DNA of 64,000 bases from a virus (taxonomy: Duplodnaviria > Caudoviricetes), in the IMG/VR virus record IMGVR_UViG_3300006115_001097, positions 1,223-65,222 of that record; one strand, given 5' to 3'. The notes under the pieces are model-generated. The model had not been told where the DNA came from and ran no database searches. It saw nothing but the letters and a program-made list of their open reading frames with translations. The position numbers were made by a program, and so were the translations under genes. Below are positions 3,381 to 35,386 of the stretch, piece by piece (positions within the stretch are counted from its first letter, which is position 1; every line of letters starts with the position of its first letter).

Positions 3381-4142
3381 CTATATCTCCCCATAAATTT
3401 TAAGTATCTCTACTACCGCAGCATGTCGGTGTATATCACGACCCGCGAATTCAACTCCTGCGACATAGCGACTATTTTTGTATTGGCTGACCAAACGTTT
3501 GAAGTCAATTAATCCGTTGTTGTTTTCTTTGCGGTCCGCTTGTTGCGTGTCACCTGTTACCACCATTTTACTTCCATCACCTAAGCGAGTTAACAGCATT
3601 TTCATTTGACTTGGTGTGGCATTCTGCATTTCGTCAGCAATGATCCACGATTGTTTAAATGTCCGTCCACGCATAAATGCTAGGGGAGAAACCTCAATTA
3701 CTTGTTCATCTAGCATTTTAGTAATGTCAGCTGGGCGGTAATACTCAGCAAACACATCCATAATGGGTCTTGTCCAGGGGGCCATTTTTTCATTTAGCGT
3801 TCCGGGCAAGAATCCATGTTGTTCATCATCTACTCCCACTGCTGGGCGAGTAATCACAATCTTTTTGCAATCACCTTCTTGGTAGGCTTTGATAGCGGCC
3901 ATAACTGCCAGCATTGTTTTACCTGTACCTGCAGGACCTGTTGCAAATATAATCAGTTTCTGGGGATTGGTTAATAAATCAATGTAGTTCTCTTGATTTA
4001 AACTTTTGGGTTTTAATTCTACACGTCGACTACGTTGCACGAATTCCTCGGTTACTACACGTAGATCGGGCTGGGCATGTCTTTTTTGTTTGGGTTGTTG
4101 ATACTGAACGGTTTCTACTAATCGATTTCTGCGTTTGGACAA
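3381..4142 (-). CDS. phoH: PhoH-family ATPase
   Basis: GPAGTGKT, RPAV, GFLPG, RGRTF, DEMQN and GDTQQ motifs; start moved to TTG at 4142 behind an AGGAGG RBS (the ORF track starts at 4178). Confidence 0.95.
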   Translation of the reverse strand: MSKRRNRLVETVQYQQPKQKRHAQPDLRVVTEEFVQRSRRVELKPKSLNQENYIDLLTNPQKLIIFATGPAGTGKTMLAVMAAIKAYQEGDCKKIVITRPAVGVDDEQHGFLPGTLNEKMAPWTRPIMDVFAEYYRPADITKMLDEQVIEVSPLAFMRGRTFKQSWIIADEMQNATPSQMKMLLTRLGDGSKMVVTGDTQQADRKENNNGLIDFKRLVSQYKNSRYVAGVEFAGRDIHRHAAVVEILKIYGEI

Positions 4143-23623: not shown

Positions 23624-23652
23624 ACTAAATATAGTAATAGAGAAATATTACT

Positions 23653-25176
23653 ATGTTTGTTACTGAATTATTTGAAGCAAAAGAGCGCCGTGTGTTGGTA
23701 GTATACCCAGGGCGCTTTCAGCCTTTTCACCTAGGACATATTGCGGTACTAAAGCACCTCCAAGCCAAATTTGGAGCAGACAATGTACGTATTGCCACTA
23801 GTCCCAATACTGTTCAAGACAAAATAGCATCGGGCGCAACGCACGATAAAAAGTCAATTCCCAAGAATCCCTTTAACGCAAACGAAAAAATTCAGCTAAT
23901 GAAGGCAGCTGGGGTTAATGATCATCAAATATTATTAGTTAATGATCCATATGGCATAGATGCCGTAGTTAGTGCCGCAGGCGTTGATCCAAGATCAACT
24001 GTTTTAATTTTTGCAGTTGGTGCTCCAGATAAAGAACGTTTAGAAGTTGATAGTGTTTATCAAGAATTTACGCCCAAGCCAGACAAGTTTGGCAATCCTA
24101 GACCAACTAAACTTCCACCGGGCAAAAAAGTAGGTGATGAAAAGCCATTTAAAACACTACCAAAGAATCTAGCAGATACTGTTACTGTAGGTGATGGACA
24201 TGCGTATGTTTTAGTAGTCCCAGAAAAGAAAGTGCCATTTACTATTAATGGCAAAACACTAGATATTAGTCATGGTACTGAGTGCCGTGCAGTATGGAAT
24301 CAAGTTCGAAATAATCCCAAAGAACGTAATGCGTTTTTAAAGACACTATACGGACATGCCACTCCTGAGCTGGTGCATATATTCAACAAGATACAACCTG
24401 ACTCAGGAGCAGAGCCTGTTGCCGGGACACCGCCAGCAAAAACTCCTACCCGGTTACCAGCACCAGCTGAGCCTGCAGGTGGTATGGAGGTTAAAAAGAG
24501 TGCCAAGCGAGCCAATCCATTGGTTAAAGAAGCAGTATTGCCCACTGATGCTCCTCCAGGGCAAGCACCACAGACTGCAACTGCCCCACAGGCACAAGTC
24601 ACTGACACCCCACAGGCTCGAGCAGCCTCTCAAGCACTACAAAAAGGATTGCAAAAATATCAACTATTGTATCCCAATACCGATCATGGCTTTATCACAA
24701 GATTTATCGATCACATTGAACCCAATGGTACTATAGTTGTTGCTGGCGACAACAGTCCACAAAAAATCAAAGCATTGTTGGCACAGGGCGGCGGAGCACA
24801 GTTTCAAGTTGTTAATCAAGAGCAATTGCAAATAGCACAAGTTAGAACCGTGCAAGAAATGGGAGGGGTTGGTGTCGTCAAAGGTGGCAGTGATCCACGT
24901 TATAGTACTGCCACAATGGGCGATCAAAATGCAGTAACTGGCAAAACACTAGGTAAAGAAATGCGTGATCTTCATCTTGCTGAAGTTGATGATTTTGATA
25001 CAACTGCTGCTAAAATGAAACAAAACTTATTGGACATGGTTGATATGCGTATACACAGTATTCAACAAATGATCAAGGGCGATCCTGAAGCTGCACAGGC
25101 ATTTACACCAAAGTTAAAAGAACTTGAACAAAAGAAACTAGAGATAATTATAGGTAGAAAGTTAGGAGCCAACTAA
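23653..25176 (+). CDS. HIGH-motif nucleotidyltransferase (cytidylyltransferase/NMNAT-like) with a long C-terminal extension
   Basis: YPGRFQPFHLGH, ISHGT; CTS-like N-terminus MFVTELFE. Confidence 0.75.
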   Translation: MFVTELFEAKERRVLVVYPGRFQPFHLGHIAVLKHLQAKFGADNVRIATSPNTVQDKIASGATHDKKSIPKNPFNANEKIQLMKAAGVNDHQILLVNDPYGIDAVVSAAGVDPRSTVLIFAVGAPDKERLEVDSVYQEFTPKPDKFGNPRPTKLPPGKKVGDEKPFKTLPKNLADTVTVGDGHAYVLVVPEKKVPFTINGKTLDISHGTECRAVWNQVRNNPKERNAFLKTLYGHATPELVHIFNKIQPDSGAEPVAGTPPAKTPTRLPAPAEPAGGMEVKKSAKRANPLVKEAVLPTDAPPGQAPQTATAPQAQVTDTPQARAASQALQKGLQKYQLLYPNTDHGFITRFIDHIEPNGTIVVAGDNSPQKIKALLAQGGGAQFQVVNQEQLQIAQVRTVQEMGGVGVVKGGSDPRYSTATMGDQNAVTGKTLGKEMRDLHLAEVDDFDTTAAKMKQNLLDMVDMRIHSIQQMIKGDPEAAQAFTPKLKELEQKKLEIIIGRKLGAN

Positions 25177-25487: not shown

Positions 25488-27332
25488 ATGAAACCCACAG
25501 AATTTTTACGAGAATTTACCGATGCACCCAGTGATGGCACTGATGCAACTATGGCTAAAAACACCTTGCACACCATTGTACGTGTAGCCAGTCACTTAGA
25601 AGGTGCGTTAAGCGACAACGAACATTTACCTGAATGGGTCGAGGAAAAACTCGGAGCTATTAAAGAAATGATGGTCACTGTCATGGACTATGCATTGAGC
25701 CAACACGAAATAGACAAAGAACACGAAGACGAATTGCCTGCGTTCAACATTGGTGATGCTGAGCGCACCATGAGCGAGATGGTTGCCGATGAAGGAATTG
25801 AAGAAAGTGATTTGTATTTGCCAAAGTCACATGTGGAGGAGGGCCAAGGAGATTTTGAAAAAGCACTTGCTCGATTTGATGGTGAAGGTAATATTGGTGG
25901 TTGGATACCTGAAACTGAATCAAATTATGAATTTGGCAAGTATCAACCCATGGTAGATAAAGCACTTGAACAGGGTGCAAAGATTTATGACTATGATGAT
26001 AATGAAGGTGGTTATGATTATCATGGAGAAATAATTGCAAGCCCAGATGGCATGTTCTATTCTAATATAAATAATGAAATTGCCGCACACAAAGGCATGG
26101 GTGAAATGATGCGAGCAATTAGAAAAGCATTTGATGTAGACAGTTACCATGGCATGGGCGAACCAGGACCAACCAAATTTGACAAGTTAAATTCAAGACG
26201 TCCTACTACTCCCGATGATCTATACAAAGTCGACAATGAGAAGCTGGGTAGAAAAAAGGGCACGTTAACTAAATCACGCAGAGATGCCATGAAGTCGCCT
26301 TATCGTGGTGGCTTAGGTGGACCAAAGGGTGTGTTGCCCGAGCAAGGTGTGGCGGAGGGTGTTAACGAATATCTATGGCACGGGTCTAGGTATAGAAATG
26401 AGGTACTAGTACCGCGTCAGGCTAATGATACCGGTGGTAAAGAAGAAAGTAATAAAAATGCTATATATGCTACACCTAGTGCAAAAGTTGCTATAGCAAT
26501 GGGACTTACTACACCGGGCTCGGATACAGGTATGTTTCCTAATGACCCACAAATGGTACTATTCAAGGGCGGTATTAGAAAAGGTGAAATGGTTTACTTG
26601 CACAAGGTACCTAAAGATTTATTCATAAAACACAACAGCAGAGAATGGTATAGTAAACCCGATGTAAAAGAAATTAAACCCATAGACGTAGTAACAGTTC
26701 CCGTAGACAAATGGTTAAGTTTGATTAGAACTGCTACCCCTAAAGATTTAGAACTACAGAAAAAAAACATGAAGAAGCAAGGTGTGGCGGAAGGTCGTAG
26801 AGATGCTTACCAACGCGACTATGACAGAAGCGTTGCCGGCATGGATGCAGGTCCGCTGGGATATGAAGAAGAATGGGACGAAGGGCCCCGAGAACCCACT
26901 TATACAGTGTATGTAAGTGACGGCACAACATGGCACCGTGAGGGTGGCGTATACGATCACGAGATGGCAGCACAACGCTATATCCATCAACAGGTGTTTA
27001 CAAAAAATCCCCAAGCACGAGTGGGCATATTGGGCCCGGGTGATGCCAAGCCGGTAGTGGTACCACCAATCAAGGGACACACATATAAAGAATCTGTAAA
27101 AGGTGCCATGGGCTTGAAAGAAATGGCATCATTGCGACAACAACTCAAACACGAACTGAATCGACTGAGTGAAGATTCCGGTGCTACTGTAAGCAGTTCA
27201 GTTGCCACTGTGGTTACTGAACTAGGTGCTGGTGGCATGACTAGAAAACAAGTTGAATCAAAACTAAAAGGTTATACCAATAGACAAAGCAACGTCAAGC
27301 ATGATATCAAACCACCCAAGGCTAAAAAATAA
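25488..27332 (+). CDS. Mosaic putative internal-head polyprotein containing an ART-fold-like module
   Basis: MKPTEFLRE start after CTAAATA; two QGVAEG linkers; LWHGS...IYATP module between them. Confidence 0.65.
   Translation: MKPTEFLREFTDAPSDGTDATMAKNTLHTIVRVASHLEGALSDNEHLPEWVEEKLGAIKEMMVTVMDYALSQHEIDKEHEDELPAFNIGDAERTMSEMVADEGIEESDLYLPKSHVEEGQGDFEKALARFDGEGNIGGWIPETESNYEFGKYQPMVDKALEQGAKIYDYDDNEGGYDYHGEIIASPDGMFYSNINNEIAAHKGMGEMMRAIRKAFDVDSYHGMGEPGPTKFDKLNSRRPTTPDDLYKVDNEKLGRKKGTLTKSRRDAMKSPYRGGLGGPKGVLPEQGVAEGVNEYLWHGSRYRNEVLVPRQANDTGGKEESNKNAIYATPSAKVAIAMGLTTPGSDTGMFPNDPQMVLFKGGIRKGEMVYLHKVPKDLFIKHNSREWYSKPDVKEIKPIDVVTVPVDKWLSLIRTATPKDLELQKKNMKKQGVAEGRRDAYQRDYDRSVAGMDAGPLGYEEEWDEGPREPTYTVYVSDGTTWHREGGVYDHEMAAQRYIHQQVFTKNPQARVGILGPGDAKPVVVPPIKGHTYKESVKGAMGLKEMASLRQQLKHELNRLSEDSGATVSSSVATVVTELGAGGMTRKQVESKLKGYTNRQSNVKHDIKPPKAKK
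26341..26360 (+). repeat. 20-bp repeat copy 1 (AGCAAGGTGTGGCGGAGGGT)
   Basis: 19/20 identical to the copy at 26776; encodes QGVAEG. Confidence 0.9.
26776..26795 (+). repeat. 20-bp repeat copy 2 (AGCAAGGTGTGGCGGAAGGT)
   Basis: Direct reading of the sequence. Confidence 0.9.
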
Positions 27333-27979
27333 TGGATCAGCACTTTAGCAATATCATAAACACGTTCAAACGTTTAGACGAGTCAACAAAAAAGAACAGT
27401 CACGGACACAGCAAAAAACAACAAGCAGCTATTGCTATTGCTAAACAAGGCATGGCGGAAGGCGGTATGCATGATGCCGAGCACAATCCACGTGGCGCTA
27501 AATTTGGCGGCTATTGGAAAGGCACAGACAAGAATCCGCCTCGACCAGGTCAGGGTGTAGGTTCATCTGAAAGCATCCAGGAAGAAATAGCACGTGAGTG
27601 GAAAGCCTACGTTCAAGAAGCTGGCGCAAACAATCCACAACAAGGTGGACAACAACTAAATCCACAACAACAACAGGCTCGGGAACGAACATTAACAACC
27701 AGTGTACAAAAAATTTCTCAAGCCACTGGTAAAAAGCCTGTAGGTGGTGTTCCTATTGCGGTAAAAGGTGCTGATGAATTGTTAAAGAATCCCAATGCTG
27801 ATCCTGCAACAGGAAAAGGCATGAGCCCACAAGCTAAAAAGTTTACAGCCACTGTAACTGATGAACTTGGGCCGGCACTACTAGATCCACAAGCGGCTCA
27901 ACAAATTGCTACAGCAGTTAAACAGGCAACACAAAAACAAAAAATGCTGCCGCAGGAGTCAAATAATGTTTTTAAATGA
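27332..27979 (+). CDS. Putative internal-head protein
   Basis: QGMAEG linker, Gln-rich segment, x-x-E linkers. Confidence 0.6.
   Translation: MDQHFSNIINTFKRLDESTKKNSHGHSKKQQAAIAIAKQGMAEGGMHDAEHNPRGAKFGGYWKGTDKNPPRPGQGVGSSESIQEEIAREWKAYVQEAGANNPQQGGQQLNPQQQQARERTLTTSVQKISQATGKKPVGGVPIAVKGADELLKNPNADPATGKGMSPQAKKFTATVTDELGPALLDPQAAQQIATAVKQATQKQKMLPQESNNVFK
27444..27463 (+). repeat. 20-bp repeat copy 3, degenerate (AACAAGGCATGGCGGAAGGC)
   Basis: 17/20 identical to copy 4. Confidence 0.75.
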
Positions 27980-29939
27980 TATTGTAGATGCCATGAGCAT
28001 CGCCGAAGCCAAACGCACACAAGCACAACGCAATCGTGAACATTGCCGCACCGGTTGGCACAAAGAAGGATCAAAGGCCAGTCCCACTTATGGCAAAGAG
28101 GTCGAGGTCAATAACTGTGTTAAAAATGAAAGTGCGGCGGAAGGTGAGCATGATGCCGAATTCATTGATCACGAAGATAGTTTTTATAACATGGCCAACT
28201 TTGCTCATGAACAAATGCGTCAAGGTAAGTTATTACAAGATGTGGTTAAATATTTGGTAGACAATAACTATCTTGAGGGACGACAAGTTAGTACATTTGT
28301 AAAACAGGTGCGTGGCGAGAAATGGAATGAAGGCGTCGATGATACTGTAACATTTGGTGTTGACAGTGAAAAGGCCTACAATCATATTATGACAAAATTT
28401 GGCAAAGCGATCACTTGGCGTGGCGATGACATGGTGGCTCCACGTAAGTATTGGGCGGCTATACAACAATTGGCACACGACGCCGGCGGAGCAACTGAAG
28501 AAACCGGATACGAACGGGACGTAGCTGAGACCACAGGCGATAAGCCTTTTGATAATATGATGAAAACTATTAAAACGGGCACAAAAAAACAAGCCACTGC
28601 AGATAGACGCAAACAAAAAAAGCAAGACCAAGAAAGAACAAGAACCGCTATTAGCAATATGTTTGGCAGTAGCATGGATCAATTGAAAAATTTAAAAATT
28701 AAAGAGCAAGGTGTGGCGGAAGGCTTGGAACAAACTCCCGATCAGGTGCGGCAAACTCTCAATGCCTGGATGGAGCGAGATCAGCAATACACGGATCCAA
28801 CCCAACGGGCCGGGGACCAAGCAAAAGTTTGGCCCTACATTCAGCAGAACATAAAAACTATACTTGCAGACAAAGGTGAGGACGGTAAAGGTAGTTATCC
28901 GGCGGCACCTTATGCGGCTTGGTTATTAGTTCAACACATGGATGCTTATCCGCAAAATCAAATTGAATTTTACAACGCACTAAAACAGGCTATACCCAAT
29001 CATCCTAAGATCCAATTCTTAAGAGATCGTGCGGCAGTGAATCAATGGATATTACAAAATGCCAATAATCCTAAGTATTATTACAATAGTGAACCATTGC
29101 CCAATCCCACAGTAAATGTGCGTAATCCTGCCATGTTCAAAGATGCTGGTATAGTAGCTACAAGTAGAAAAGAAGCATTAAAGAATGCTATAAATGCAGG
29201 AAATAAATTGTTGGTGGCTGCGGTTCGAGCAACTAAGGCAAAAACACAACCAAGTTATAAGCAAGGCGTCGAGGAAGGCTGGAAAGGCAAACTAGCCGGT
29301 GCTGCTCTAGCAGGAGCAGTAGGCGCTGGTGCAATGGGCTATCACGATGCCACTCCTGATATTGAATACAAGGGGTATACATTCCAACATGCACCGCTCA
29401 ATGTCAAAGTGCCTGGATCAGCACACTATGTCAAATTGGATGGCAAAGAATACTTGATGTGGAAAAGCAACAAGCCTGCACTACCCGGTAATCCAGAATT
29501 TTTATACAAACTCAAAAGCGAAGGCGATGCAGAAAATCTTGCTGGTCTGGAAGAAGATTCATGGCATGGTGAAGGTGATGCTTGGCATGGCCAAGGGCAA
29601 GTAATGGAATATGCAGATGCACATATGGTTCCAAACGATAGTGCAAGTGCTATCCCGGGAACATCCGAGCTTGACGAAAATACACCTAGTAGACAATCAC
29701 TGATTGACTTACTAAAAGATCAGGTTGATGTTAGTCATTTAGAATTACTTACATACGATGAATTGTTAAAAGTATGTGAACATTATGGCATTGAATTGAA
29801 CGAGTATAATTCTGCAGATCCTGCAATGGGACCAAGTCCAGATGACTCACAAAGTCCAATTCATGAAATGACACAACAAGAACGACGTTTAGTTGCTTTG
29901 TATCTAGCAGAAATGAAACGTGCGGGATACTTTGAATAA
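27966..29939 (+). CDS. Mosaic putative internal-head polyprotein containing a DUF6624-like module
   Basis: Likely start MFLNDIV at 27966; QGVAEG...QGVEEG bracket a module with AAWLLVQHMD. Confidence 0.6.
   Translation: MFLNDIVDAMSIAEAKRTQAQRNREHCRTGWHKEGSKASPTYGKEVEVNNCVKNESAAEGEHDAEFIDHEDSFYNMANFAHEQMRQGKLLQDVVKYLVDNNYLEGRQVSTFVKQVRGEKWNEGVDDTVTFGVDSEKAYNHIMTKFGKAITWRGDDMVAPRKYWAAIQQLAHDAGGATEETGYERDVAETTGDKPFDNMMKTIKTGTKKQATADRRKQKKQDQERTRTAISNMFGSSMDQLKNLKIKEQGVAEGLEQTPDQVRQTLNAWMERDQQYTDPTQRAGDQAKVWPYIQQNIKTILADKGEDGKGSYPAAPYAAWLLVQHMDAYPQNQIEFYNALKQAIPNHPKIQFLRDRAAVNQWILQNANNPKYYYNSEPLPNPTVNVRNPAMFKDAGIVATSRKEALKNAINAGNKLLVAAVRATKAKTQPSYKQGVEEGWKGKLAGAALAGAVGAGAMGYHDATPDIEYKGYTFQHAPLNVKVPGSAHYVKLDGKEYLMWKSNKPALPGNPEFLYKLKSEGDAENLAGLEEDSWHGEGDAWHGQGQVMEYADAHMVPNDSASAIPGTSELDENTPSRQSLIDLLKDQVDVSHLELLTYDELLKVCEHYGIELNEYNSADPAMGPSPDDSQSPIHEMTQQERRLVALYLAEMKRAGYFE
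28705..28724 (+). repeat. 20-bp repeat copy 4 (AGCAAGGTGTGGCGGAAGGC)
   Basis: 19/20 identical to copy 2. Confidence 0.9.
29260..29279 (+). repeat. 20-bp repeat copy 5, degenerate (AGCAAGGCGTCGAGGAAGGC)
   Basis: 17/20 identical to copy 4. Confidence 0.75.
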
Positions 29940-29948
29940 ATATACATT

Positions 29949-30386
29949 ATGAATGAAGAATTAATTAACTCCGCTAAAATTGCTTTTGCCAGCAGTTTTA
30001 GTTTTTATTTAAAAAGTCACAACTTTCACTGGAACGTAGAAGGTCCTGCATTTTATCAATACCATAAACTATTTCAAAAGATATACGAAGATGTTTATGG
30101 TAGCATTGATGATTTTGCAGAAAACATTCGCAAAAGTGGTGGATATGTTCCTGCTAGTTATACACGATTTAGTACACTAACTGAAATTGCAGACGAAACA
30201 CAAATTCTTCCAGCAGAAGAAATGGTACTTGTATTATTAGAAGATGCTGAACACATGATGGGTATACTTAAAGTTGTATACGACCTAGCCGAATCGGCTG
30301 GCGAACATGGATTCTCTAACTTCTTGGCCGAACGCATTGATGCGTTCCGTAAACATGCATGGATGCTACGAGCAACAACAAAATGA
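29949..30386 (+). CDS. dps: Dps/ferritin-like protein
   Basis: HNFHWNVEGP.F..YH.LF, DD.AE.IR, HAWML. Confidence 0.9.
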   Translation: MNEELINSAKIAFASSFSFYLKSHNFHWNVEGPAFYQYHKLFQKIYEDVYGSIDDFAENIRKSGGYVPASYTRFSTLTEIADETQILPAEEMVLVLLEDAEHMMGILKVVYDLAESAGEHGFSNFLAERIDAFRKHAWMLRATTK

Positions 30387-31600
30387 GAGCAAGTGAATTT
30401 TTAATCGAATCCAAGGGCACCACACTGGGTGGATTCACAGTCAAGCCCCTACACATCGGCGGCGAAGTTGATGAAGCATTAAAACTGGATGCACCACAAA
30501 AGTCATGGCCCAAACAACACATGCAAGCCTACTTGGACCGTATCAAGACTGGTACCAAAACCAAACAAGATCGTTTCAAGCCCATCATCCACGGCAGCAA
30601 TGTTAAGGCCATTACCAAAGACGACGGAACAACAGAATGGGACCTAGAAGATCTCAAGCGTCAAATCACCACCCCGCCTAGAGCTATTCTGGGTTCCAAT
30701 GCTAAGATGAGCAAGAGCAAAAAAGAAGGTTCTATTACATATGACTTGACCTTGCCGGCCCTAAACGGCATTGTGGTAGATGAAGAAACCGGCGAATTTG
30801 TGGAAATCACAACCTGCCCTGGTGCAGGAGAATGCCAACACTACTGTTATGCTCGCAAGGGCGGATATGTAATGTTCCCAGCAAGTTCAATGAGTGCGGC
30901 ACAAGCACTCAACTTCTTGGTTAACCATCCTAGCGAATACATGGAGATGTTTGATCAAGAAGTTAAAAAAGCCAAAGCACTAGCACAAAAGAATGGTATC
31001 AAACTTCTAGTTCGTGTGCATGATGCAGGTGACTTCTTCTCTAAAGAATACTATGATCTGGTAATGGGTGTTAAAGCCAACAACCCAGACTGCAAGTTTT
31101 ACTTCTATACCAAGATGGGAGATATTGCATCGGCGGATCAGCCAGATGATGTCATTGGACAATTCAGTCCGGGCGCCAAGAGTCGCGAGGTCAAAACAGT
31201 GCAGGTCGCACGTGATGCTGGCAAGCATGTGAAGGATGCTGTGACCCTGCCAAAAGAAATGTTCCGTGACTTGTTTGTTACAGATGCCAAAGGCAAGTAT
31301 GTGAAAGACGCAGAAGGCCGCACACAGGTCCGGAGCCCAGAAGATTGGGAACACTTCAAGCACGAGCTGGCCGCTACTTACAAGATTGACCCACAGTCAA
31401 TCATCACCTATGATCAGATGGTCAAGATTCCTGAACCTGGTCCCATTGGTGAAAAGAATGTACTGCAAAAAGATGGCACAGTTAAAAAAGTGCCAGTTTA
31501 TGTTCCAGCCAAATGGAATGTTGTAGTATTCCCAGCAGGACACGGTGATCTAGGCGCAGCAAGACGTGATGTGCAAAAACAGTTCTTGATGTTCCACTAA
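30383..31600 (+). CDS. Phage Gp88-like Fe-S/radical-SAM-like protein with a CTS-like N-terminus
   Basis: TCPGAGEC..YCYA, RVHDAGDF, YFYTK; start MRASEFLIE by ATGA overlap with dps. Confidence 0.65.
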   Translation: MRASEFLIESKGTTLGGFTVKPLHIGGEVDEALKLDAPQKSWPKQHMQAYLDRIKTGTKTKQDRFKPIIHGSNVKAITKDDGTTEWDLEDLKRQITTPPRAILGSNAKMSKSKKEGSITYDLTLPALNGIVVDEETGEFVEITTCPGAGECQHYCYARKGGYVMFPASSMSAAQALNFLVNHPSEYMEMFDQEVKKAKALAQKNGIKLLVRVHDAGDFFSKEYYDLVMGVKANNPDCKFYFYTKMGDIASADQPDDVIGQFSPGAKSREVKTVQVARDAGKHVKDAVTLPKEMFRDLFVTDAKGKYVKDAEGRTQVRSPEDWEHFKHELAATYKIDPQSIITYDQMVKIPEPGPIGEKNVLQKDGTVKKVPVYVPAKWNVVVFPAGHGDLGAARRDVQKQFLMFH

Positions 31601-31609
31601 ATACTCATT

Positions 31610-34600
31610 ATGCGAGCAAAAGAGTATTCTAAAGAAAGCGACAACCGTGCATTTGTACAAAAGTACATTCCTTGGATCGCTGAGCAATTGGGAATTAAAG
31701 AACTTCCTGAAATCACATTGTTAGATGCTCCTGTTGATACAACTTTTGGGCAGTATAACCCAGAAACAAAAACTCTAAATGTTGTTATTGCCAATCGCAA
31801 TCCTGTAGATGTGCTACGTACACTGGCACATGAACTAACACATCACAAACAAAACTTAGCTGGCGAGTTGACTGCGGGCGCAGGCGAAACTGGTACTCCA
31901 CAAGAAAACGAAGCCAATGCCAATGCTGGCGTTGTTATGCGTGACTTTGCCAAAGACAATCCTGAATACTTTGGTTTGGAAAAAAGTAGTATAACCGAAG
32001 AAGCATTTAACGGCATAGATATCACTCTTGAAATACAAAAAGATGATGAATATGTTGATGATGACGATTATGATAACCAAGTAATGTATGTTACTGCTAC
32101 AAGTAACGGTCGTGAGTTAGGGCATGTGTTATTTGCCTTCGACGGTGATGAACTATTACCACAAGACCTAGAAGTTGAAGAACGCTATCGTGGACAAGGC
32201 ATTGCCCAAACCATGTATGACTATGTGACTAGTAAAGGTTATAAGATACGCCGTAGTGGTCAACAAACTGATGCTGGTGCCGGCTTTTGGGCAAAACATC
32301 GACCTGAACAAAATGTTTGGGAGGAAACAACAAAAAATCCTGCACAAGATCCCGCAGTTGTGGCACTGTTAAATAAAATGAATTATCGCATGTGGTCTAA
32401 AGGTGATGGCGAATACATGATGACCTTTAAAAACACACAGCTTGAATTCAACAGTGCCGGAGTATTTTATAACGGTCCACCAGTGAAAGGGCCCAACGGT
32501 GTCAAACCCAATTTTGGAATTAAATGGCGTCATGATCCCGAATGGTATAGTCCAAGAGGCGAAATAAGTTTTGAACATGCTTGGAAAATGGGATTATTCC
32601 CGAAAATTCAAGGGATATATCCATATCTCCAAGAAATGGATAAACAGGGCCATAGCGATCGCAACAACTGTCTCAAAATAGATCAAGCGATAGTAAAATC
32701 CGCTATCGACCATGTTTGCAGTCAAAACACACCAGTCAATGAAGACAGTGTAGACGATAAAAAACATCAGTCTGAATTAATCGACTCATTAGAAAATTGG
32801 ATGGCCATGGAGTACAATTTCCAAGACATTGAAACTATTCTAATGAGTCCCGAGTCAAGACCGTTTACACGACCGCCTGCAAGTGTACAATGGGTGTATC
32901 GTGCTATTGTGCCGCGTAGTCGAAGATTAAATTCAATCAAAGCCCGTGGACCTGTCGTGGCCTATGCTACACGTATAGAAGGTGCTATTGAATTTGTACG
33001 TGGCTTGGATACAATAGATCCGTGGTTAATTGTTCGTAAACCATTCAACCCTGCAGATATGCTATTGGATTTTACCACTATGTATGAGACTATCGTACAA
33101 CCAGATGCATATAGTGGATACGCAGTCGAGCATGAAGTTTGGATGAGATCTACACCCGCATATAACAAAGCAACTAAACAAGAAGTTGTTTTGACCAGCG
33201 CACAGTATTATGCAGATAACTATGCCGAAAGCATCCACGAAGACAGTGGCGAGAATGAATGGAATGAATTATCTCCAAAAGTCTCTAAGGATACCAATGC
33301 AACTCCTGCAATTAAAGATTTGCAACATGATTTAAAAGAGCCATATAGTTACGATGCAATAGATCACATGATGACTGCTATTGCTAAAAAATACAACATG
33401 ACTCCACATGACCTACATTTGTTATTTGTTGATAAAGTGGGAGCTACTCCAGACGTTTGGATTAGAAGCCGTGGTGCAGATCCTGACAAATGGACTAGTA
33501 AAGATATTGAAGAGAACTTTGCTGATGGCAAGAAGCCCGGACGTAAAGGTCTTGCTAAACGCAGTGGTGTTAATACCAAAGCCAGTGTAAGTAGTCTACG
33601 CAAAACCGCTAAACATTCAACTGGTGAAAAGGCTCGTATGGCACACTGGTTGGCCAATATGAAGGCTGGCAAAAAGAAGCATGCCAAAGAAGACGTAGAT
33701 GAAGCCGTCGGCGAAAAGAAACTGGTTATATTTGACATTGACGATACACTAGTAACTACCAATACTCGAGTTGGGGTAGTTCGAGATGGTAAAACCATCA
33801 AGACACTAGACAGTCATGAGTTTACCTTGTACAAAAAGCAACCTGGCGAGGAATTTGACTTTGGGGCATTTAGAGATGCCGAAGACTTTTTCAAACACGC
33901 ACAGCCAATTGCTCCTATGATCGAACAGTTAAAAGATGACATTGCAACTGGTAATAAAGTTGTAATGGTTACTGCACGAAGTGATTTCAACAATAAAGAA
34001 ATATTCTTAAAAACATTTGAACAATGGAATGTGGACATGTCAAAGGTACATGTATACCGTGCTGGCAATGATACAGACCCTGTGCCAATTGATGAAAAGA
34101 AAGCACGTATTATACGTAGACTACTAAATGGGCATCCTTATAACAAAGCCATTATGTATGATGATTCACGACCAAATTTGGAATCATTTTTAAAGTTACG
34201 ACAAGAATATCCCAATACTAGATTTTATGCCTGGCATGTGGACCACAGTGGACATGCTAGCGAGTACGCACGTGCCGTAGATGAAAGTTTATTTGAAGCT
34301 GAAGTTGCCAATCAAGTTACTGATGCTGTAATAGATTTTTACCAAGATGAAGTTGGTGAAGTCGCTCGACAACCTGTTGACAATTACGTTGAACAAGCAC
34401 AAGCATTATTAGCCAAAGCCGATCCTTCAGTTCGCGGACAAGTTAAAGAAATTCTAGTTAAAGCTAAAACAAATCCTTATATACAAGGTGGTGTAATAAC
34501 AACCATTGGTACACTATTAACTGGTGGCTTGTTGCACATAGCGCAAAATGTACAACTTTCCCCGGCACAGACCAATATGTTGTTACAGGCAGTATTGAAT

Positions 34601-35386
34601 ACTGTTATACCAACTGTGGTAAGTCGAGTCAATGGCAAAAATTGGATTGACACTGTAAAATATACATTGGCTAGTGCTGGTATTGGTATAGGTATTAGTA
34701 CCATAAGCGAAGATGAAATTACCGAAATTGAAAATTTGAAATCATACCATTATACAGGTGGTAAAGATGTGTTAAAACATCCTATGTATACTGATCCCAG
34801 AAAGGTAAGCCGAAAGAACATAAAACCGTTACCGGGTGGCAGTGGATTAAATTATGCCACCATTGACAATGGACGTTTGTTAGAAATAAGAATATTAGAT
34901 CAATCAGGGCAAGAAGCTATTGGACAATTGAAATTGCTGCGGGTAAGTTTTCCTATCGATAATGCATACCAAGTGAGTACTGTCACAGTGGATGAAGATT
35001 ATCGAGGAAAGGGCATTGCCAAGTCCCTGTATGGTGTTGCACTAAGCATATTAAAAATAACCTTGATTGCCGGATCACAACAAACACCCGGCGGTAAACG
35101 TAATTGGATGAGTCTAGCACAAATTCCCGGAGTTGAAGTTCGCGGCTACGTAGAATTGGATAATAATGATATCAACAAAGAGAAAAATGTTGACACAGTG
35201 ATGGGACAATTGGGCGGTGACTATCTTGGAGAAGACGAGGATGGCAATATGATTTTTGCTTTTGATGTAGTGCCTGGTACAGGATCATTAACTCCGGCAG
35301 TAAAAACCAAATTAAACAAACTCTATTATGGTGAATACGATATGTTGTACGTAACTGGATTGTATGCACGTTGGGCAGGACAATAA
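31610..35386 (+). CDS. 1258-aa multidomain putative internal-head polyprotein (HExxH, GNAT, ART-like, basic module, HAD, TM-like segment, GNAT)
   Basis: LAHELTHH; YRGQGIAQTMY; YRAI...AYAT...EHEVW; FDIDDTL...VTARS...YDDS; YRGKGIAKSLY. Confidence 0.75.
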   Translation: MRAKEYSKESDNRAFVQKYIPWIAEQLGIKELPEITLLDAPVDTTFGQYNPETKTLNVVIANRNPVDVLRTLAHELTHHKQNLAGELTAGAGETGTPQENEANANAGVVMRDFAKDNPEYFGLEKSSITEEAFNGIDITLEIQKDDEYVDDDDYDNQVMYVTATSNGRELGHVLFAFDGDELLPQDLEVEERYRGQGIAQTMYDYVTSKGYKIRRSGQQTDAGAGFWAKHRPEQNVWEETTKNPAQDPAVVALLNKMNYRMWSKGDGEYMMTFKNTQLEFNSAGVFYNGPPVKGPNGVKPNFGIKWRHDPEWYSPRGEISFEHAWKMGLFPKIQGIYPYLQEMDKQGHSDRNNCLKIDQAIVKSAIDHVCSQNTPVNEDSVDDKKHQSELIDSLENWMAMEYNFQDIETILMSPESRPFTRPPASVQWVYRAIVPRSRRLNSIKARGPVVAYATRIEGAIEFVRGLDTIDPWLIVRKPFNPADMLLDFTTMYETIVQPDAYSGYAVEHEVWMRSTPAYNKATKQEVVLTSAQYYADNYAESIHEDSGENEWNELSPKVSKDTNATPAIKDLQHDLKEPYSYDAIDHMMTAIAKKYNMTPHDLHLLFVDKVGATPDVWIRSRGADPDKWTSKDIEENFADGKKPGRKGLAKRSGVNTKASVSSLRKTAKHSTGEKARMAHWLANMKAGKKKHAKEDVDEAVGEKKLVIFDIDDTLVTTNTRVGVVRDGKTIKTLDSHEFTLYKKQPGEEFDFGAFRDAEDFFKHAQPIAPMIEQLKDDIATGNKVVMVTARSDFNNKEIFLKTFEQWNVDMSKVHVYRAGNDTDPVPIDEKKARIIRRLLNGHPYNKAIMYDDSRPNLESFLKLRQEYPNTRFYAWHVDHSGHASEYARAVDESLFEAEVANQVTDAVIDFYQDEVGEVARQPVDNYVEQAQALLAKADPSVRGQVKEILVKAKTNPYIQGGVITTIGTLLTGGLLHIAQNVQLSPAQTNMLLQAVLNTVIPTVVSRVNGKNWIDTVKYTLASAGIGIGISTISEDEITEIENLKSYHYTGGKDVLKHPMYTDPRKVSRKNIKPLPGGSGLNYATIDNGRLLEIRILDQSGQEAIGQLKLLRVSFPIDNAYQVSTVTVDEDYRGKGIAKSLYGVALSILKITLIAGSQQTPGGKRNWMSLAQIPGVEVRGYVELDNNDINKEKNVDTVMGQLGGDYLGEDEDGNMIFAFDVVPGTGSLTPAVKTKLNKLYYGEYDMLYVTGLYARWAGQ

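Follow-up and report, generated by a model that had tools for sequence, protein, structure and literature searches.

A nucleotide-conserved joint peptide between modules of putative capsid cargo polyproteins in a T4-related freshwater jumbo phage

Three adjacent genes of an uncultured phage, at positions 25488 to 29939 of a 64,000-base stretch of DNA (the window), encode multi-module proteins in which a short peptide, QGVAEG, recurs at module borders. The window belongs to a 65-kb virus contig in IMG/VR (IMGVR_UViG_3300006115_001097) that covers about 19% of the genome. We consider it probable that the three genes encode capsid cargo polyproteins of a T4-related jumbo phage, and that QGVAEG, hereafter called the joint, acts both as a protease joint and as a recombination handle. 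Recombination at the joint is well supported by comparison of sequences from many related loci.

In the arrangement that we propose, each polyprotein would consist of an N-terminal T4-like targeting leader followed by independently folding modules joined by QGVAEG. These modules would comprise one ADP-ribosyltransferase-like enzyme and several domains without a known family. At the protein level, a disordered linker would present Val-Ala-Glu to a T4-type prohead protease (gp21 family, S77), and the chain would be cut into separate proteins within the prohead, to be ejected with the DNA as are T4 IPI-III and Alt. At the DNA level, the 17-20 bases of the joint would supply identical in-frame homology across hundreds of otherwise unrelated junctions. 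Homologous recombination or annealing in the joint, between co-infecting phages or between copies in one genome, would replace, delete or insert modules, and an exchange within the joint would keep the reading frame automatically, whatever gene holds the copies.

The joint and its fit to a T4-type protease site

The 20-base consensus has five matches on the + strand with zero to three mismatches, distributed over the three adjacent genes (Table 1). The expected number of chance copies is 0.01, and none of 100 shuffles reached five. Every copy begins at the second base of a codon, giving one shared register, and the encoded peptides have the general form (E/K)QG(V/M)(A/E)EG. A decayed sixth copy keeps about 12 of the 15 core bases. 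The original prediction had described five copies and a partial sixth in three genes and a single codon register, with spacings of 435 bp (145 codons) and 555 bp (185 codons). Motif scan and translation confirm the copies and their register, and the spacings from 26341 to 26776 and from 28705 to 29260 are correct. The codons GTG and GCG in the joint, which had been called unusual, are indeed rare, accounting for 17% of Val and 6.5% of Ala codons in the long open reading frames (ORFs) of the window. The joint peptide motif is absent elsewhere in all six frames of the window, and the DNA motif is a one-strand direct repeat with no inverted repeat or palindrome and no reverse-complement copy. The canonical core (e.g., 26781-26794) holds four GG runs, for which a weak two-tetrad G-quadruplex of -2.7 kcal/mol is predicted by ViennaRNA; common silent variants lose this prediction.

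Judged from its genes, the phage is an uncultured freshwater jumbo phage related to T4. The genes of the window include a T4-type family B DNA polymerase (PolB), a ClpA-like ATPase and radical SAM enzymes. The nearest cultured phages by PolB are all distant jumbo myoviruses, i.e., Phosso (51% identity), Atu_ph07 (44%) and the Rak2-like GAP32 (43%). Close relatives were found in five IMG/VR records of 168-343 kb, with a PolB that is 71-78% identical to that of the window and, in four of the five, a ClpA-like protein that is 53-66% identical. The closest of these records, G003, shows synteny with the window across the region. Freshwater metagenomes from many studies contain this stretch of DNA; no RNA dataset was listed among those that contain it, which has no bearing on expression. 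Neither a megablast search with the region nor a tblastn search with gene 1 produced a match among 50,697 GenBank phage records. With up to three mismatches allowed, the DNA motif was not found in Phosso, Atu_ph07, Vibrio phage 2.275.O or GAP32, which are the nearest relatives in culture, and a short blastn search with the motif returned only chance 17-mers and no cultured phage carrying it.

A T4-type head module is present in two of the relatives, G001 and G003. Besides a gp22-like scaffold and an acidic core protein, it includes a gp21-like S77 protease (E = 4e-27) and a capsid protein of the gp23 kind (E = 6e-99), and the N-termini of the G003 and G001 capsid proteins carry Leu-x-Glu sites that match the T4 gp23 cut position. 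Record G002 (342,865 bases, rated 99% complete) has copies of the joint, PolB and a RecA-like gene, and matches neither the gp23 and gp21 families nor the G003 proteins; its head module is either absent from the record or highly divergent.

The T4 protease gp21 cleaves after L/I-x-E, and the internal proteins of T4 bear targeting leaders of 10-19 residues (PMC9026906). One protein packaged in the T4 capsid, Alt, is an ADP-ribosyltransferase (PMC9026906, PMC3012670). In the joint, V-A-E precedes a Gly. Among 115 homologues of the ADP-ribosyltransferase-like module, the upstream edge has Glu at P1 in 113, V, M, L or I at P3 in 106 (V 72, M 20, L 10 and I 4, with T in 6 others), and Gly or Ser at P1' in 109 (G 76, S 33). 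Decayed joints retain only the hydrophobic-x-Glu pattern. The joint thus fits the T4-type hydrophobic-x-Glu protease rule and is a predicted cut site. This agrees, as a fit of sequence, with the earlier reading of the motif as an x-x-Glu site, and it is exactly these residues that decayed copies keep. Leaders similar in pattern to T4 targeting sequences occur at the genes starting at 25488, 27966, 23653, 30383 and 31610, and 89-97 ORFs in related loci begin with M-R-A-x-E-F-I-x-E. By analogy with T4, a role of the genes as capsid-targeted, protease-processed cargo is plausible.

The strongest competing explanation, which we nevertheless find unlikely, is that the joint is a shuffling sequence and flexible spacer that remains uncut, comparable to the 'recer' sequences discussed below, the proteins being multi-domain enzymes of the infected cell and not cargo. 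The junction evidence described below is independent of cleavage and would suit it equally. The motif genes are also distant from the head module in both G001 and G003, and the partner domains are ordinary enzymes (GNAT, deaminase, NUDIX). On the other hand, T4 internal-protein genes lie apart from the T4 head genes as well, which counts against this explanation. A spacer role would furthermore leave the P1 Glu and the hydrophobic P3 of decayed joints unexplained (113 of 115 with Glu), as it would the T4-like leaders ending in hydrophobic-x-Glu and the fusion of such a leader through GVAEG to a module.

Exchange of modules at a joint of fixed spelling

To locate breaks in homology, we compared all pairs of motif instances that were at least 75% identical over one or both of their 60-base flanks, and regarded the other flank as unrelated when its identity was below 45%. 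At the motif, 41 pairs were discordant and 7 concordant, whereas control anchors 100-150 bases off the motif gave 15-24 concordant and 0-4 discordant pairs. The position of the break was measured for 40 discordant pairs, and in 39 of them it fell 0-7 bases from the motif. Another 13,158 pairs share an identical motif though both flanks are unrelated.

The modules themselves occur in many combinations. At least 12 different contexts occur upstream of the ADP-ribosyltransferase-like module, and single modules recur behind many neighbours. In locus L240, a stand-alone ORF of 171 residues consists of a leader, GVAEG and this module. Only 3 of the 237 relatives of gene 1 cover about half or more of the gene, the remainder matching one module only, and 115 of the 119 listed match just the ADP-ribosyltransferase-like module. 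Relatives that carry this module are 343-1075 residues long and have GNAT, ParB-like, deaminase, NUDIX, nucleotidase or chitinase domains. For gene 3, 54 of 93 relatives match only the middle 185-residue module.

Replacement of a single cassette is apparent from P0005 and P0006, two orthologues of gene 1. They match gene 1 at about 95% identity in the first module and at about 97% in the core of the last one, but the interval bounded by the two joints holds, in place of the ADP-ribosyltransferase-like module, unrelated cassettes that are about 50 and about 200 residues long. The left break is exactly at the motif. The first joint of P0005 reads QGVAGG and keeps most of the DNA motif; its Glu is lost, and therefore the predicted cut site is gone.

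Metagenome contigs give a similar picture. In a freshwater run from 2012, a contig that matches module 1 at about 98% identity connects 26369 with 26801, with 431 bases skipped and 2 added, a net change of -143 codons that is in frame. The depth of the cassette in that run was 0.57, compared to about 9.8 on either side. In four freshwater metagenome runs, contigs with one side of a joint in common part from each other at 26358, 26774, 26792, 27446, 28705 and 28722-28734, and contigs that share the stretch up to joint copy 4 continue into several sequences, one of which is ADP-ribosyltransferase-like. Contig joins with sides of 21-23 bases (26361 to 27419 and 26794 to 28685) were not counted as deletions; these are most likely contigs of other phages that align via the repeated motif. 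In metagenome X14, positions 28128-28495 and 28864-29415 were uncovered with no bridging contig, and nothing is claimed from these parts. Taken together, pairwise flanks, orthologue alignment and metagenome contigs bear out the earlier proposal that gain, loss and replacement of modules map to the repeats.

Two further observations concern copies of the joint in single genomes and communities. The single contigs L061 (joints at 3460 and 4768) and L101 (1018 and 1219) each contain two joints with upstream 60 bases that are 100% identical and downstream modules that are unrelated, which suggests that duplication followed by exchange also occurs within one genome. Upstream of joint copy 4, positions 28496-28724 had a depth 5-15 times that of the surroundings in four metagenomes from freshwater, and the depth showed another sharp boundary at 28578. 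This seems to be a short module common to many co-occurring phages.

The joint is also fixed in its DNA spelling. The exact 17-base core is found in at least 120 IMG/VR contigs, and loci often contain two to four copies. Of the 162 copies found, 161 encode QGVAEG in an open frame. The five large relatives have 2-7 copies each (up to two mismatches), all on one strand. In loci chosen by the exact 17-mer, 159 of 176 QGVAEG peptides have the canonical spelling; the additional copies in such loci give a fairer figure, with 42 of 56 exact. When three wobble positions were left free in the scan, 46 canonical loci were obtained in the same part of the collection versus about a dozen genuine variants, each one or two silent steps away, the remaining matches being chance occurrences in unrelated contigs, mostly of high guanine-plus-cytosine content. 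In a sample selected by protein similarity to the ADP-ribosyltransferase-like module, the canonical 15-base core was present in 15 of 17 GVAEG joints. Overall, about 75-90% of QGVAEG linkers are canonical, against 0.24% expected for the canonical 17-base spelling from the peptide and codon usage.

Bias extends to the base preceding the motif, which tends to be G, the preceding codon being AAG in 43 cases and AAA in 9. The N-terminal leader of the same gene families, which provides an internal control, uses common codons with an ordinary synonymous spread (Ala GCA 58, GCT 15, GCC 15). In the alignment of ADP-ribosyltransferase-like modules, the synonymous-site score was 0.78-0.90 for the motif codons and had a median of about 0.46, a difference that is blurred by close relatives in the sample and gives weak support. 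The silent sites, which the original prediction expected to be conserved, are thus nearly invariant across relatives despite the rare codons. This fixation is best explained by transmission bias. Cassettes with the canonical spelling would keep moving, and drifted copies would cease exchanging and persist only as protease sites.

These data also bear on an explanation in which the joint is a protease site only and its identical DNA reflects recent descent or duplication of linker-plus-module units. The motif does match the gp21 rule, and linker and module could travel together via any recombination. However, recent descent accords poorly with a motif that is identical in the 13,158 pairs with both flanks unrelated, with rare codons that are fixed while the leader motif of the same genes drifts normally, and with homology that stops at the motif in 41 of 48 informative pairs and rarely 100-150 bases off. 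We regard this explanation as improbable.

About equally improbable is selection of the silent sites at the level of RNA or translation, through a rare-codon or G-rich pause or a two-tetrad G-quadruplex, with junctions that cluster because other recombinants are non-functional. GTG and GCG are rare, the codon before the motif prefers the rarer G-ending form (the 43 to 9 ratio given above), and the predicted quadruplex formed by the four GG runs is lost in common variants. A pause, however, would tolerate any rare codons, whereas one spelling dominates and its variants are single steps off. Viability selection alone predicts heterogeneous junctions, not an identical 17-20-mer with breaks 0-7 bases away, and the predicted quadruplex is very weak.

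Concerning the mechanism of exchange, no tyrosine integrase (PF00589) was found in the window record and four related records (262-343 kb; two at least 97% complete), with positive controls that matched in 14 of 14 genomes. A RecA/UvsX-like recombinase gene is present in relatives and was found in three records. Given the integrase result, this recombinase gene and a motif that is a one-strand direct repeat lacking a palindrome, general homologous recombination or annealing in the shared 17-20 bases is the simplest mechanism, and it suffices. The integron-like array proposed in the original prediction holds as an analogy only, given that the search of five records found no tyrosine integrase and that the joint has no inverted repeats. 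A dedicated site-specific enzyme (an integron-like integrase or homing-type nuclease) that recognises the 20-mer and moves cassettes, possibly as circles, would suit the sharply bounded, highly conserved site and has a parallel in the mini-circles that T4-type phages form between repeated PeSL elements (PMC2839356), but it is very improbable in view of the integrase result, of a motif with neither an inverted repeat nor an opposite-strand copy, and of the neighbour genes scanned, among which no recombinase was found, serine recombinases and nucleases not having been searched for.

Several points weigh against reading the three genes as cargo polyproteins with a joint that serves both protease and recombination. 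Cleavage and packaging are argued by analogy, the phage clade being uncultured, and the joint has Val at P3, not the canonical Leu/Ile of T4. Searches for gp21 and gp23 gave no head-gene match in the window's own 65-kb contig, and none in three of the five related records (G002, G004 and G005), one of which is 99% complete, a result that is not taken as absence. The right breakpoints are not always exact, since homology between P0001 and P0005 resumes about 25 residues past joint 2, and the contig join of 26369 to 26801 sits 5-9 bases off the motif. For RecA-type recombination 17-20 bases are short, and exchange is deduced by comparing sequences. Loci picked by the exact 17-mer yield biased spelling counts, although less biased samples still give 75-88%. 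Finally, the silent sites could be fixed for a different reason, for instance a pause at rare codons or a weak G-quadruplex.

A more far-reaching version of the proposal, which we advance tentatively and as possible rather than probable, is that selection maintains the joint for both uses, which would make it a 'coding-sequence integron without an integrase'. Its spelling would be kept for cassette exchange among co-infecting jumbo phages, possibly aided by structure or by a break-prone G-rich core, its peptide would release the cassette products in the capsid, and a lake-wide pool of effector domains would be shared across the clade.

If cargo polyproteins with such a joint are indeed present, they show how a large environmental clade of jumbo phages diversifies its injected arsenal, with one short sequence that solves both the keeping of frame in domain exchange and the release of domains after packaging. 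Hundreds of cassette-delimited domains, many without a family, would become candidate effectors of host takeover or anti-defence, and the joint would be a natural design for loading multi-protein cargo into T4-type capsids. It would also be a clear example of selection on coding sequence beyond the protein product. The proposal predicts peptides that end in VAE and an exchange that depends on the spelling of the silent sites.

Genes, modules and neighbouring features

The features of the region are listed in Table 1. Stop/start overlaps of the type TAATG couple genes 1 and 2 (27329-27334) and genes 2 and 3 (27963-27968). Because of the overlap with the preceding stop, gene 3 most likely starts at ATG 27966 and not at TTG 27906 as in the ORF list, which leaves the finding unaffected.

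Table 1. Positions of the genes, joints and modules in the window, with neighbouring genes.
Feature	Position	Strand	Observations
Neighbour gene, cytidylyltransferase-like domain	23653..25176	+	Leader of same kind, M-F-x-x-E-L-F-E
Gene 1, 614 aa, putative three-module polyprotein	25488..27332	+	ORF; leader begins MKPTEF, resembles capsid-targeting sequence
Joint copy 1, EQGVAEG, 1 mismatch	26341..26360	+	Predicted scissile bond after Glu codon 26355-26357; P0005/P0006 homology stops here; metagenome contigs diverge at 26358
ADP-ribosyltransferase-like cassette, H-Y-E type, 145 codons	26358..26792	+	Homologue alignment; AlphaFold2 (AF2)/Foldseek
Joint copy 2, KQGVAEG, canonical spelling, 0 mismatches	26776..26795	+	Contig loose ends at 26774 and 26792
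Gene 1 third module, 179 aa, no known family	26793..27329	+	Core ~97% identical in P0005 and P0006 despite differing middle cassettes
Gene 2, 215 aa	27332..27979	+	44-residue leader, joint, then low-complexity Gln/Gly-rich body; TAATG overlap with gene 1
Joint copy 3, KQGMAEG, 3 mismatches	27444..27463	+	Motif scan
Gene 3, 657 aa from ATG 27966, putative three-module polyprotein	27966..29939	+	Leader ends I-A-E, then Ala
Decayed joint, NESAAEG	28126..28146	+	Following residues resemble those after copy 3
Joint copy 4, EQGVAEG, canonical spelling, 0 mismatches	28705..28724	+	Motif scan; metagenome loose ends 28722-28734
All-alpha cassette, 185 codons, no known function	28722..29276	+	AF2; x-x-Glu joints on both sides in homologues
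Joint copy 5, KQGVEEG, 3 mismatches	29260..29279	+	Gly/Ala-rich hydrophobic segment follows
Neighbour gene, GP88 domain	30383..31600	+	Start at internal Met; leader M-R-A-S-E-F-L-I-E
Neighbour gene, 1258-aa multi-domain protein (GNAT, HAD, GNAT)	31610..35386	+	Leader of same kind; second joint type at 33512-33529

Pfam and PHROG searches assigned no family to the three genes or to their seven modules. Across 16 homologues of the ADP-ribosyltransferase-like module, the residues of a putative H-Y-E triad (HGS, YAT and one Glu) do not vary. This module has no Pfam family match, and its AF2 model was of moderate quality, with a predicted local distance difference test (pLDDT) score of 66. The top Foldseek matches of the model were rifampin ADP-ribosyltransferase Arr and Tpt1/KptA (E 0.013-0.05, probability 0.9-0.97), which are weak but mutually consistent matches to an ADP-ribosyltransferase fold. 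The 185-residue module of gene 3 gave a model with a pLDDT of 88 and a predicted template modelling score (pTM) of 0.83, in which the last seven residues, belonging to the linker, had a pLDDT below 50. The model suggests that the module folds by itself and that the terminal linker is disordered. A PDB fold search with this module gave no match. Directly 3' of joint copy 5, positions 29277-29340 encode the Gly/Ala-rich hydrophobic segment, and similar segments follow joints in L084 and L089. These segments may be membrane-active peptides that are exposed only upon cleavage.

In the wider region, six genes lie side by side whose domains (cytidylyltransferase-like, GP88, GNAT/HAD and others) are unrelated, and T4-targeting-like leaders stand at the start of five of these genes. 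In the GP88 gene the leader is found at the internal Met at 30383, not at the first ATG at 30359. The second recurrent joint type at 33512-33529 consists of Glu followed by N-F-A-D-G and a start rich in Lys/Arg, and the NFADG start also follows QGVAE joints in other phages and in a metagenome contig that diverges at 26792. The sequence CTAAATA, which is reminiscent of the T4 late promoter TATAAATA, occurs upstream of eight start codons (at 23625, 25459, 31597 and five other sites on the + strand), at distances of 5 to about 100 bases and mostly within 60. It is not enriched across the window, with 16 occurrences observed and 14.3 expected.

Relation to known systems

A literature search for the linker peptide gave one unrelated match and no paper that mentions the peptide in such a context. 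The parts of the arrangement are known separately; for their combination, with tandem cargo cassettes in one ORF and a codon-locked joint that fits a protease rule in hundreds of contigs, we found no description in the literature. The original prediction that no named system matches has to be toned down, as in-frame or motif-guided shuffling is known elsewhere.

The most direct comparison is with the cargo of T4, i.e., IPI, IPII, IPIII and Alt (PMC9026906, PMC3012670). The leaders share an E-F-I-x-E core and end in hydrophobic-x-Glu, the phage is T4-related and the protease family is present in relatives. Both sets of cargo are diverse and fast-evolving, with an ADP-ribosyltransferase-like module here and Alt in T4. 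Reviews have proposed that, by means of the targeting sequence, T4-like phages can package a variety of proteins (PMC9026906, PMC3012670). T4 differs in having separate genes with one leader each, whereas here modules are chained in one ORF with a repeated internal site. This site is fixed in DNA, marks exchange points and has Val instead of Leu/Ile at P3, and it is known here from sequence alone. Compared to integrons, the joint lacks attC-type imperfect inverted repeats, and no IntI-type tyrosine recombinase was found.

Borders of polymorphic toxins, such as VENN in CdiA and PxxxxDPxGL in Rhs, are in-frame motifs that supply homology for swapping C-terminal toxins, and in Rhs the border is also a site of proteolytic release. 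These are bacterial proteins with one border each and attached immunity genes; in the phage genes several cassettes stand in tandem, and immunity partners are lacking. In surface proteins of Gram-positive bacteria, the 'recer' sequences, reportedly described by de Chateau and Bjorck in 1996 (PNAS 93:8490, cited in PMC3962080), are said to be nucleotide-conserved interdomain stretches that were proposed for in-frame shuffling and as flexible spacers. The joint is likewise nucleotide-conserved, encodes a disordered linker and lies at module borders, but the 'recer' sequences are bacterial, are not known to have a protease role and involve far fewer modules and genomes.

In the jumbo phages phiKZ and SPN3US, ejection proteins are cut after Glu at S/A-x-E by a gp21-related protease (PMC9026906). 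A repeated, DNA-fixed architecture of linkers and cassettes is unreported there. The adhesins of T-even tail fibres also contain conserved in-frame motifs, the glycine-rich motifs of gp38, that separate hypervariable segments swapped by recombination (PMC3157838; Tetart et al. 1998, J Mol Biol, cited there). The gp38 motifs form the structural core of one domain, whereas the joint is a disordered linker between independent domains.

The PeSL cassettes of T4-type phages resemble the present system at the level of DNA, as a short repeated sequence flanks variable units that are shuffled by homologous recombination (Arbiol et al. 2010, PMC2839356; Comeau et al. 2014, PMC4122927). Breakpoints at the repeated element were found here too. 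For PeSLs, mini-circles have been demonstrated (PMC2839356). The difference is in what is exchanged: PeSLs are intergenic promoter-terminator stem-loops that move whole genes, whereas the joint described here is coding, in frame, and moves protein domains.

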